Shown piece by piece: positions 1,518-4,110 of a stretch of DNA of 5,591 bases. Position numbers and translations under genes: made by a program. Numbering within the stretch: position 1 is the stretch's first letter; each line of letters begins with the position of its first letter. A model generated the notes under the pieces. The model did no database searches and was not told where the DNA came from. It worked only from the letters and a program-made list of their open reading frames with translations. The DNA is from a virus (Duplodnaviria; Heunggongvirae; Uroviricota; Caudoviricetes), in IMG/VR virus record IMGVR_UViG_2675903394_000001, positions 1-5,591 of that record; one strand, 5' to 3'.

Positions 1518-3439
1518 TCATCCTCTCCGGATAAGGCACGGGCGTAATCTGCCAGTGTTTTCTTGTTGGTTGCTGCACTATCCTCTTCCTGCAGGCTCGC
1601 CAGCAGTGCACTGAGATCGAGCTGCCAGCGGGAAATACTGATACGGAGCGCTGCCAGTGCATAAACGAAGCAGTCGAGTGCCTCATTGCGTCGCTTTTTG
1701 CTGTCCCACAGTATTTTTTTCCTGCCATCCACCCATTTTTCGACCTGCTCTTCAGCGGTCAGTTGCTGCGCTTCGGTCAGATCAAAAATATCCGGGTTAT
1801 TCGGGAAGTGAACGGCACCGGGAAGCGGTTCATCCCCTTCCGGCATCAGTGTGAAGCGGTTATAAATCTGCTCTTTCGCGGTATCCGTACCAATTTCGGT
1901 AAGGTAAACCCCGTTTTTGTTTCGCTTACGTGGCATGCTGGCCACCGGCTTACCGTAGACGGATGCCCCTTTTACGGGGATCACCCGGAATAGCCCATGT
2001 TTTTTCGAGCGTTCATACACAATGGTCGGGTCAATCCCGCCAATATCCCAGCAGATACGGGATACCGACATTTCTGCGCCATTCCGGCGGGTATAGGTTT
2101 TATTGATGACCTCATCCACACGCTGCAGCGTCTGCTCATCATCATGGCGGCCCATAATAATCTGCCGGTCAATCAGCCAGCTTTCTTCACCCGGCCCCCA
2201 TCCCCATACGCGCATTTCGTAGCGGTCCAGTTGGGAGTCGATACCGGCAGTCAGGTAGGCCACACGGTCAGGAACGGGCGCTGAATAGTGCTCTTTCCGC
2301 TCTGCCATCAGCTCAGCATCCGGACGTTCGCCAATTTTCGCTTCCCACGTCTCACCGAGCGTGGTGTTCACGAAGGTTTTACGTTTTCCCGTATCCCCTT
2401 TCGTTTTCATCCAGTCTTTGACAATCTGCACCCAGGTGGTGAACGGGCTGTATGCCGTCCAGATGTGGAAGGTCACACTGTCAGGCGGCTCAATCTCTTC
2501 ACCGGATGACGAAAACCAGAGAATGCCGTCACGGGTCCAGATCCCGGTCTTTTCGCAGATATAACGGGCATCAGTGAAGTCCAGCTCCTGCTGGCGGATG
2601 ACGCAGGCATTATGCTCGCAGAGATAAAACACGCTGGCGGGATCATCCGGCGCCCATTTAAAGCCAAACGGCGTCTCTTTGTCGCCAAATTTAAGGTACT
2701 GCTCCTCCCCGCAGTGCGGGCAGGCAACATGAAAACGCATAAAATGCGGGGATTCACTGGCAGCACGCTCAATCTGGCAGGTGCCTCTCACTTTGGGCGT
2801 GGAGCCACGGATGGACTTTGGCCAGACCGAGCCTTCAATACGCTTGTCGCCCAGAAACGTCGGAGAGCCTTCCTGTTCAATATCCTCATCAAAGGCAGCA
2901 AGTTCATCATAACCCGCCACATCCACTGACTTTTCACGGTAGTTTTTTGCCGCTTTACCGCCCAGGCACCAGAAGCCACGCCCATTGGTGAAACGCTTCA
3001 TGGTGAGCGTGTTATCCCGGTGCTTTTTGCCATACCACGGAGCCAGCGCCAGCAGCGACGGAATATCACGGATGGTCGGCTCAACGTGAGTTTTCATGAA
3101 GTTTTCTGCATCGCCATCCGTCGGCAACCAGATAAGGACATTGCGCTGCTTATGCTCTATGAAGTAGGCATAAACACCCAGCAGCATTTTGGAATAACCG
3201 ACACGGGCAGACTTCACCACATTCACCTCGCGGATGTAGTCGCTGCCCATCGCATTCATGATGGCCCGCTGAAAGGGCAGTGTTTCCCAGCGCCCTTCCT
3301 GGTATGCGGATTCTTTCGGGAGATAGTAACTGGCGTCCGCCCATTCAACGGGGGTCATTGGCAACGGTCTTTTCAGGACTGAGAGACCCGCCTTCACTGC
3401 CAATACGAAATTATTCATCTGTATTTCTGTAATACTCAT
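1514..3439 (-). CDS. A: Terminase large subunit (lambda gpA-like, 641 aa) with a non-lambda N-terminal ~30 residues
   Basis: The 643-aa track ORF (1514..3445, TTG start) is recognisably lambda gpA from [69 protein letters not shown] to the C-terminal [14 protein letters not shown] place the start at the ATG at 3439-3437 (MSITEIQ...), which gives the lambda length of 641 aa and has an AAGGA 8-12 nt upstream. The first ~30 residues ([30 protein letters not shown]) do not match lambda gpA (MNISNSQVNRLRHFVRAGLRSLFRPEPQTA). Confidence 0.93.
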
Positions 3440-3917
3440 CCGCAAATTCCTTCATTTTTTCAGCAGATTCAACGCATTTATTAGCTCCCTTCGCAACAAG
3501 CTCTTTCAGATAAGCCAATTGTCTGCCTGTCAACTCAGGGAATTTTCTTTGCATCGAAAGCGGAATACTGTCCAGAACAGATGCCAGTTCTCCGGATAAC
3601 CGGGACAGTGCAAAAACAGAGAAAGCGGTATCAATCACTTTATGCTCTGCAACCTGGTTTTTTAACCGCTGAGCAATAGCCTGTTCTTCCGTCAGATTAA
3701 CCCTGGCCTGAAGTAGCCTTTCCTCAAGGTCATTTTCACCATCTGAAGATTTCTGGTTTTGCTGACGTCGCTCGCGATCTATCTCCAGTACAGTTTTAAC
3801 GTCATAGAAAACCTCTCTCCCCCGGCGCTCAACAGGAGGGACACCCCATTTATCAAATGCCTGTACTGAGATACCGATGGAGGAGGCCATGTCGCTTTTA
3901 TTCAATAAAAAGGCCAC
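3411..3917 (-). CDS. Nu1: Terminase small subunit, Nu1 family but strongly diverged from lambda Nu1
   Basis: The track ORF 3411..3941 (TTG start) translates to ...LNKSDMASSIGISVQAFDKWGVPPVERRGREVFYD...TAFSVFALSRLSGELASVLDSIPLSMQRKFPEL.... This aligns with lambda Nu1 (NKKQLADIFGASIRTIQNWQEQGMPV...TAFCTFVLSRIAGEIASILDGLPLSVQRRFPEL) at roughly 35-40% identity by eye. Position is immediately downstream of cos and the 3' end overlaps the gpA start, as in lambda. Start is uncertain: I favour GTG at 3917-3915, which has GGAGGA 4 nt upstream; alternatives are TTG 3905, ATG 3890 (which would truncate helix 1 of the winged HTH) and the track's TTG 3941. Confidence 0.75.
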   Translation of the reverse strand: MAFLLNKSDMASSIGISVQAFDKWGVPPVERRGREVFYDVKTVLEIDRERRQQNQKSSDGENDLEERLLQARVNLTEEQAIAQRLKNQVAEHKVIDTAFSVFALSRLSGELASVLDSIPLSMQRKFPELTGRQLAYLKELVAKGANKCVESAEKMKEFADEYYRNTDE

Positions 3918-3947
3918 AGCTCCTCCATAAACCACCGGCAAAAAAGC

Positions 3948-3959
3948 AATACAACAACC
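3948..3959 (+). repeat. cosB repeat copy 3 (R1-like), aatacaacaacc
   Basis: 12-bp motif about 30-40 bp upstream of the candidate small-terminase start codons. Confidence 0.5.
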
Positions 3960-4016
3960 CCGTTTTTTGTAAAACCCTCTGATTTTACATGCTTTTTCGT
4001 ATAAGAAAGCTCATCA

Positions 4017-4028
4017 GGTTGTTGTATT
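4017..4028 (-). repeat. cosB repeat copy 2 (R2-like, inverted), ggttgttgtatt on the plus strand
   Basis: Exact reverse complement of aatacaacaacc (3948-3959); inverted relative to the two flanking copies, like lambda R2. Confidence 0.5.
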
Positions 4029-4072
4029 TGTTTTTCTTTCTTATTACTTATCAAGTAGATATATCAAACGAT

Positions 4073-4084
4073 AAAACAACAACC
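4073..4084 (+). repeat. cosB repeat copy 1 (R3-like), aaaacaacaacc
   Basis: 12-bp motif aWacaacaacc, about 39-50 bp from the cohesive end; 11/12 identical to the copy at 3948-3959. Confidence 0.5.
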
Positions 4085-4110
4085 ACCACCTCAAAAAAAC
4101 TCATAAATAG

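Follow-up and report, generated by a model that had tools for sequence, protein, structure and literature searches.

A candidate packaging-recognition cassette between cosN and the large terminase gene of a lambda-like Escherichia coli prophage

Organisation of the locus and its identity to lambda

We examined a stretch of 5,591 nucleotides (the window; positions 1 to 5,591 of the tailed-phage record IMGVR_UViG_2675903394_000001) that holds the cos region and the first head genes of a lambda-like prophage. The subject of this analysis is the block at 3350-4100, which comprises cosB, the gene for the small terminase subunit (TerS) and the first codons of the gene for the large terminase subunit (TerL). 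The minus strand of the window corresponds to the direction of lambda, and in phage numbering bp n is window position 4135-n. Read in this direction the locus runs from the DNA upstream of cos through cosQ, cosN, cosB, TerS, TerL and W to the start of the portal gene B (Table 1).

Table 1. Features of the window, with window positions and, for the cosB sites, phage numbering.
Feature	Position	Strand	Remark
Portal gene B, 5' part	1-1314	-	lambda-like flank, 97.2% nucleotide identity; open reading frame runs off the window
gpW, head-tail adaptor	1311-1517	-	lambda-like flank
TerL remainder, gpA ATPase and nuclease domains	1514-3349	-	97.7% amino acid identity to lambda gpA from VEWAD onward
TerL first 30 codons, candidate TerS-docking end	3350-3439	-	diverged, 41-43% identical to lambda over 30 residues
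TerS, 168 amino acids	3411-3917	-	GTG start at 3917, GGAGGAG at 3920-3926; start as given by the Prokaryotic Genome Annotation Pipeline (PGAP) in E. coli genomes
TerS C-terminal half, distinct predicted TerL-binding allele	about 3411-3695	-	by sequence comparison
TerS residues 1-45, N15-type winged helix-turn-helix DNA-binding domain	3783-3917	-	80% identical to N15 gp1
R1-like site GGGGTTGTTGTA	3950-3961	-	core at phage bp 176-184
R2-like site	4015-4026 (phage bp 109-120)	+	inverted relative to R3 and R1; core GGTTGTTGT on the plus strand at 4017-4025 (bp 110-118)
I1, candidate bend site	4049-4074 (phage bp 61-86)	+	two tandem sites resembling those of integration host factor (IHF), between R3 and R2
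R3-like candidate TerS site GTGGTTGTTGTT	4075-4086 (phage bp 49-60)	-	core GGTTGTTGT at bp 51-59
cosN region	4101-4134	-	34 bp, 100% identical to lambda bp 1-34; right-hand conserved anchor of the block
cosQ heptamer GGGTCCT, packaging-termination signal	4158-4164	-	24-30 bp upstream of the left cohesive end; read from the sequence
End of IS3-family element, TGAAGTGGTCAACAAAAACTGGCCA...	5549-5591 (about 43 nucleotides)	+	truncates the KilA-N/ORF11CD3 gene (5082-5528)

Alignment by blastn (word size 7) matched window 1-3370 to lambda 780-4149 at 96.5% identity with 0 gaps and window 4101-4554 to lambda 48092-48502 joined to bp 1-34 at 88%, and found no lambda match in window 3371-4100. When a global alignment to lambda was forced, identity was 97.2% over 1-1513, 95.9% over 1514-3370, 42.4% over 3371-4100, 100% over 4101-4134 and 85% over 4135-4554. 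Within gene A the final dense cluster of differences from lambda stops at window 3352, that is at codon 30, and is directly followed by the fully conserved GTTGAATGGGCGGA, which encodes VEWAD. The original prediction for this DNA, made from the letters alone, had placed two breakpoints at about 3350 and 4098-4100 and expected the loss of identity to be confined between them. Blastn, the global alignment and the end of the cluster in gene A place both within a few bases of these positions, and identity changes at sharp edges from 96-97% to 42% and then to 100%. The expectation that gpB, gpW and gpA from VEWAD onward would be nearly those of lambda was borne out as well (97.2% of nucleotides in the portal flank, 97.7% of amino acids in the gpA remainder), as was the match of cosN and the stretch beyond it to the left end of lambda (34 of 34 bp).

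TerL consists of 641 amino acids, starts with the ATG at 3439, overlaps the 3' end of the TerS gene by 29 nucleotides and contains the Pfam domains GpA_ATPase and GpA_nuclease. The original prediction had called its N-terminus unrelated to that of lambda up to about codon 30; the boundary stood but the wording did not, and at the identity given in Table 1 the segment is, as judged from the alignment, a diverged homologue. TerS is a member of the Pfam family Phage_Nu1 (E 1.5e-21). It is 36.8% identical to lambda Nu1, in keeping with the distant homologue that had been proposed, and 26% identical to gp1 of phage 21, and thus it is far less lambda-like than the TerL remainder. Its DNA-binding domain shares 32% with that of lambda (the phi80 domain shares 80%) and 22% with that of phage 21, whereas its recognition helix GISVQAFDKWGV is identical in N15 gp1. 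The AlphaFold2 model of TerS (mean predicted local distance difference test score 78.5, from an alignment of 51 sequences) displays a strand-helix-helix-wing-helix arrangement and then long helices, the layout to be expected of a Nu1-type protein. Two alleles of the block differ in their TerS codons by 14 synonymous and only 2 nonsynonymous changes, which indicates, from codon comparison, that the TerS family is under purifying selection.

Genetic work on lambda and phage 21 has assigned packaging specificity to cosB, TerS and the TerS-binding end of TerL (PMC9026076, PMC4669245); the TerS N-terminus binds DNA, the TerS C-terminal half sets the TerL-binding specificity and the TerL N-terminus binds TerS (PMC9026076). 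The diverged block consists of the same three elements and both of its breakpoints fall on functional boundaries, which supports the specificity-module exchange that had been proposed for this locus. We put at roughly 0.85 the probability that window 3350-4100 is a complete packaging-recognition cassette, set within lambda-like DNA by homologous recombination at two conserved islands.

Recognition elements and their closest known systems

The core GGTTGTTGT is present in cosB in three exact copies, at phage bp 51-59 (forward), 110-118 (inverted) and 176-184 (forward), for a chance expectation of about 0.04 copies in the whole window. The layout is the canonical R3-I1-R2(inverted)-R1, with R3 about 50 bp from the cohesive end. 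When seven cosB regions were aligned, drawn from E. coli (two allele types), Escherichia sp., Klebsiella, Pluralibacter and an Aeromonadaceae metagenome-assembled genome, R3 and R2 stood out as near-invariant islands in otherwise diverged DNA. Eight of the nine core bases are invariant across the seven taxa, the only variation in the R3 core being one G-to-A change in Pluralibacter. The R3-R2 spacing of 59 bp is conserved among the aligned relatives and R1 is conserved in six of the seven regions. No sequence within 4 mismatches of lambda R3 was found in cosB, nor were repeats of the phage 21 type (CATGTCGG), and the claim that the cosB repeats differ from those of lambda therefore held. The annotated sites of phage 21 (R3 50-65, I1 72-86, R2 107-122, R1 150-165) have the same R3-I1-R2 geometry as the window, while R1 of the window lies about 20 bp further out.

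The candidate I1 is made up of the IHF-like sites TATCAAGTAGATA and TATCAAACGATAA at bp 61-73 and 74-86, each one mismatch away from WATCAANNNNTTR; IHF is predicted to bind there. The sequence TTGATAAGTAA is kept in five Escherichia and Klebsiella relatives and is missing from Pluralibacter and the Aeromonadaceae genome. To the right of cosB, the 12-nucleotide cohesive-end sequence GGGCGGCGACCT at 4123-4134 is identical to that of lambda, as are the next 22 bp. The highly conserved 7-bp cosQ (PMC4669245) was recognised as GGGTCCT upstream of cos in most of the related loci examined.

A fourth exact copy of GGTTGTTGT, at 4370-4378 on the minus strand, was considered as an R4-like site and rejected. 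It is located about 240 bp upstream of cosN, outside the cassette, in coding sequence (Thr-Thr-Thr) of an open reading frame (ORF) with a DUF3950 domain, and it is identical in lambda, which uses different R sites; most likely it is a coincidence of coding sequence.

With its cohesive end and cosQ, its R3-I1-R2-R1 array and its overlapping subunits of the Nu1 and gpA families, the locus belongs to the lambda-like cos systems with complex cosB. Neither the R sequences and recognition helix of the lambda packaging specificity (lambda, 434, phi80) nor the R boxes and gp1 recognition helix of phage 21 were found in it. The critical R3 of N15 was mapped mutationally to GAGGTTGTTGTT at bp 48-59, and the Monarch group of N15-like prophages is described as sharing the recognition helix of N15 and an R3 that matches, its cosB being tripartite like that of lambda, with an IHF site, and rR2 being absent (PMC4669245). 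R3 of the window, GTGGTTGTTGTT at bp 49-60, agrees with N15 R3 in 11 of 12 bases at an offset of 1 bp. An inverted R-like sequence within 2 mismatches, as expected of an rR2 in the TerS gene, was absent from bp 218-724, and the same scan detected the rR2 of N15. Because of the near-matching R3, the tripartite cosB and the absence of an rR2-like sequence, a fit of the cassette to the N15/Monarch recognition type, judged by the published description of Monarch, is supported, and a packaging specificity of this type is predicted.

The likeness to Monarch thus extends to an N15-identical recognition helix, a close R3 and a tripartite cosB with inverted R2 and no rR2. That description, however, covers recognition elements only, and the window adds to them a distinct TerS C-half and TerL N-terminus and a nearly lambda TerL body. 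N15, the prophage of which is a linear plasmid, resembles the window in the DNA-binding domain (80%), the identical recognition helix and the R-site core GGTTGTTGT about 50 bp from the cohesive end. It differs in its simple cosB, with R3 only and a remote rR2, in a cohesive end that departs from that of lambda at bp 9 and 12, and in its TerS C-half and TerL N-terminus, which are 84% and 66% identical to lambda as opposed to 43% and 52-53% to the window. Lambda itself has the same architecture, cohesive end, cosQ and distance from R3 to the nick, and TerL from residue about 31 is shared at 97.7%, but its R-site sequence is unrelated and it is distant in TerS (37% overall, 32% in the DNA-binding domain) and in the TerL N-terminus (41-43%).

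Prophages of E. coli IBS28 and E. albertii have the window-type DNA-binding domain (98%) and the same cosB layout, but only 56% identity in the TerS C-half and 66% in TerL. They share the lineage of their TerS C-half and TerL with phage PhiR12_2, the DNA-binding domain of which is unrelated and the R repeats of which differ. In the lambda-21 hybrids and lambda N15hy4 of the Feiss laboratory, DNA specificity depends on cosB together with the DNA-binding domain of TerS, a TerS C-terminus works only with a matching TerL N-terminus, and one cosN can replace another, as would apply to the window. Those hybrids, however, were engineered or selected in crosses, and in N15hy4 a hybrid TerS that ends in the C-terminus of lambda works alongside the wild-type TerL of lambda, whereas the window is a natural chimera with a whole foreign TerS and about 30 foreign TerL codons. 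A hijacker of the type found in phage-inducible chromosomal islands (PICI/Rpp-type) was also considered and rejected, since TerS is full length, has a predicted TerL-binding C-terminus and lies in a lambda-like head operon.

Co-variation within the cassette and its carriers

Comparison of the relatives, segment by segment (Table 2), suggests that the cassette is made of two linked sub-modules that recombine separately in nature: one unites the DNA-binding domain and the R sites, the other the C-half of TerS and the N-terminus of TerL. The sequence of the R sites changes along with the DNA-binding domain, and loci in which that domain is of the PhiR12_2 type have CATGTCCGGTT repeats instead. 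Three of these loci (L046, L049 and L050) combine the PhiR12_2-type domain and the CATGTCCGGTT cosB with a window-type TerS C-half and TerL N-terminus. Their TerL bodies are close to lambda, at about 90% in L046 and 94% in L049 and L050 over the available 48-144 residues. N15 and phi80, the TerL bodies of which are 88-91% identical to lambda, have lambda-type TerS C-halves (84-92%) and TerL N-termini (66-76%); L011 and L046, at similar TerL-body identity, share only 45% of the TerS C-half and 41-45% of the TerL N-terminus with lambda.

Table 2. Percentage identity of related loci to the window in four segments of the terminase subunits.
Locus	DNA-binding domain	TerS C-terminal 75 amino acids	TerL first 30 amino acids	Rest of TerL
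Lambda	32%	43%	41-43%	97.7%
L011 (Pluralibacter prophage, closest overall)	91%	81%	66%	89%
IBS28 / E. albertii-type prophages	98%	56%	45-47%	66%
L046 (Citrobacter-like)	20%	89%	83%	90%
L049 / L050 (metagenomic)	20%	95%	90%	92-94% (first 48-144 amino acids only)

In a partial Mantel test the TerL N-terminus co-varied with the TerS C-half given the TerL body (r = 0.33, p about 0.0006), and the DNA-binding domain was uncoupled from the TerL body (Spearman 0.07); both statistics are descriptive, the 19 taxa being phylogenetically related and partly selected via a DNA-binding-domain search pattern. The closest nucleotide match changes along the window from the L011/N15 type (3895-3730) to the L050 type (3670-3370, 78-96%) and then to lambda (below 3340, 87-100%), which agrees with the published assignments of the TerS and TerL domains (PMC9026076).

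Two further observations concern the relatives. PhiR12_2 (L009), L046 and L049 appear to represent another recognition type, with a DNA-binding domain starting MATQ(T/V)EVA... that is unrelated to the lambda, 21 and N15 types; it is paired with CATGTCCGGTT cosB repeats, with R2 inverted, and combined with two TerS C-half/TerL lineages. N15-type domains with a simple, R3-only cosB and a short, N15-like distance from cos to TerS were seen in Trabulsiella (L014), Erwinia (L018) and Enterobacter phage MStein-2023a (L010), and a tripartite cosB was found in the Aeromonadaceae genome (L017) and in Klebsiella (L051). By this sample of loci, the simple and the tripartite architecture are both spread across genera.

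The cassette was found at full length and at least 96.5% identity in 22 of 5,426 complete E. coli genomes, in all cases on the chromosome, and about 200 further E. coli genomes have only the related IBS28-type DNA-binding domain and cosB, at about 80% identity. No carrier was present among 50,697 phage records searched with 3350-4100 by megablast and by sensitive blastn, the latter aligning no more than 119 bp, at 76%, with gene 1 of N15 and with an N15-like Enterobacter phage; uniform identity of the window to one known phage was therefore not observed. The exact TerS protein is encoded on at least 19 contigs, and the loci displayed have a 641-amino-acid TerL followed by lambda-like W and B and, where the locus extends far enough, by C, D and E. 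Among donors, the nearest full-length TerS, Pluralibacter-like, is 80% identical (scan of GTDB genomes and a database of 5.8 billion proteins). In three of the loci with the exact TerS (L038, L041 and L042) the prophage ends about 1.2 kb upstream of the DUF3950 ORF, that is about 1.8 kb upstream of TerS, beside genes of a resistance-nodulation-division efflux pump (ACR_tran / MFP), and these copies appear to have no early and lysis regions. The prophage H53 of E. coli MEI7BO1-21 was considered as a natural chimera broken inside TerS and was dropped, as it is deleted and pseudogenised.

Upstream of cosQ the DUF3950 ORF (64 amino acids, window 4343-4537, plus strand; Pfam E 9.5e-19) lies on the strand not used by the head genes, some 210-400 bp upstream of cosN. 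Lambda conserves the same frame at about 48100-48294 (complement), past position 47944, at which the annotation of NC_001416 stops. A palindrome, GATAAnnnTTATC, is found 5-8 bp upstream of cosQ in lambda (about 48450-48472) and in 9 of 26 examined lambda-like loci with a cosQ-like site, among them L005, L009, L011, L013, L018, L039, L049 and L051. In lambda it reads ATGATAATCATTATCA and resembles a Fur box, and in the window it is degraded (GAAATTATTATC); here 4165-4215 is the least lambda-like stretch of the right flank, with 60-63% identity and a 7-bp indel.

Origin and meaning of the cassette

The edges of the cassette suggest how it would have been acquired. Both cosN bp 1-34 and the VEWAD block are conserved throughout the group and would thereby provide homology for crossovers exactly at the functional edges, so that homologous recombination at these two islands, cosN and the VEWAD-coding stretch of the TerL gene, could have exchanged the DNA between them. 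As regards its function, the N15-type winged helix-turn-helix domains of a TerS dimer would dock on two of the GGTTGTTGT repeats, R3 and the inverted R2, which an IHF-type bend at the TATCAA sites would bring together; R1 would be accessory. The TerS C-terminal half would hold TerL through the first 30 or so TerL residues and place its nuclease on cosN, with R3 at the same distance as in lambda, 21 and N15, to cut lambda-type 12-nucleotide cohesive ends. Within each of the two sub-modules the partners would have to remain matched, R sites to DNA-binding domain and TerL N-terminus to TerS C-half. On this model the terminases of lambda and 21 should not package cassette-bearing DNA, while the cassette terminase might still package lambda DNA, as an N15-specific terminase does, and the swap may for this reason be asymmetric rather than fully orthogonal.

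Several points weigh against this interpretation. TerS binding, IHF bending, TerS-TerL docking, nicking by TerL and the specificity phenotype are all predicted by homology with lambda, 21 and N15. One-mismatch IHF-like matches are common in AT-rich DNA, 7 being found in the window where 4.1 are expected. R3 is displaced by +1 bp relative to that of N15, although a shift of R3 by 1-2 bp is tolerated in lambda (Feiss). The structural comparisons did not lead back to lambda: phmmer with TerS against the sequences of the PDB gave no match at E <= 0.01, and Foldseek with the TerS model against the PDB gave insignificant matches only, some of them, at E >= 0.08, to what we take to be MerR-family or MerR-like DNA-binding proteins, with lambda gpNu1 recovered by neither. 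The descriptive nature of the co-variation statistics belongs here too. The nearest donor reaches 80% over the whole of TerS, so that the exchange may have run in either direction and may have comprised more than one event. Finally, the prophage copy identical to the window is probably defective.

This last point opens the first alternative, that the cassette is a relic without present packaging function in a prophage that has become defective, its intact reading frames reflecting recent decay. The window is 100% identical to part of CP117609.1, in which an IS3-family insertion sequence, presumably IS911-like by its terminal sequence, adjoins and truncates the KilA-N gene (148 amino acids in the window as against 235 in carrier L043), with the transposase gene next to it; the head protease gene C contains in-frame stops and the lysis genes are missing upstream. 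TerS, TerL and W are nevertheless intact in the window, as is B as far as it is present. The carriers L039, L043 and L004 keep their lysis genes and have intact head genes as far as their loci extend, and the excess of synonymous changes is evidence of purifying selection on the family. We regard the chances of a relic at this locus as evenly balanced; a defective host copy would in any case leave the nature of the cassette unchanged.

The second alternative reverses the history. The cassette would be native, and the TerL, W and B flanks would have been homogenised later toward lambda by gene conversion with co-resident lambda-like prophages; having no partner, the cassette would have stayed untouched, and mosaic edges would arise at the same functional boundaries with nothing swapped in. 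The carriers give this idea substance. In seven others the cassette is 100% identical in five, 98.9-99.8% in L004 and about 97% in L006, which has the second allele, whereas divergence from the window amounts to 0.1-3.8% in the TerL and portal flanks, where it is patchy and sets in 20-140 nucleotides from the junction. Partners for conversion are plentiful, as 5,194 of the 5,426 E. coli genomes have matches to the lambda-like DNA of the window, often in several copies, and the TerL bodies of the same-allele relatives L046 and L011 are only about 90% identical to lambda. The identical pattern is expected, however, from a recent spread of one cassette allele into diverse lambda-like backgrounds. 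With the closest sampled donor at 80% identity, both such a spread and repeated conversion of the flanks by co-resident lambda-like prophages fit the data, and we consider the reversed order possible but less likely than not.

Rapid divergence in situ of the Nu1 gene and cosB of a lambda ancestor, under diversifying selection and with no recombination, appears very improbable. Specificity determinants are plausible targets of such selection, and homology of the proteins to Nu1 and gpA can still be recognised, but nucleotide identity steps from about 97% to 42% within about 20 nucleotides on each side, parts of the block are closer to other lineages (78-96% to L050, 78-87% to L011, a recognition helix identical to that of N15) and the differences within the family are mostly synonymous. 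An assembly artefact or chimeric contig joining two phages has a practically negligible chance of being the explanation, as the same junctions recur in 22 complete E. coli genomes and in independent NCBI and Logan assemblies and nothing was found in its favour.

A more tentative suggestion may be added. The unit of TerS C-half and TerL N-terminus, which is common to Citrobacter-like, Pluralibacter and metagenomic relatives, might pair the subunits with an orthogonal specificity of its own, the third besides those of lambda and 21, and the cassette may spread as a unit among lambda-like prophages; we rate this as possible but doubtful. If the former were true, the natural junction would map TerS docking to the first 30 or so residues of TerL, a narrower segment than the TerS-binding domain of about 48 residues that lambda-21 hybrid genetics of the Feiss laboratory reportedly defined. 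If the latter were true, a private packaging specificity would avoid abortive initiation at the cos sites of co-resident prophages.

A module swap of this kind is already known, and the cassette, which joins a natural Monarch-type recognition to a distinct TerS-TerL interface and nearly lambda head genes, reveals no new kind of system and will not surprise the specialist. What the classical lambda-21 and lambda-N15 hybrids achieve in the laboratory has here a natural equivalent, recombination having cut exactly at the edges of the specificity determinants. The comparative set offers ready-made natural chimeras for mapping the poorly defined contact between TerS and TerL, and the chimera described here is suited to asking whether the N15/Monarch specificity works with the lambda motor. 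Moreover, it extends the short list of packaging specificities in E. coli lambda-like prophages and bears on cross-packaging, transduction and interference in polylysogens.

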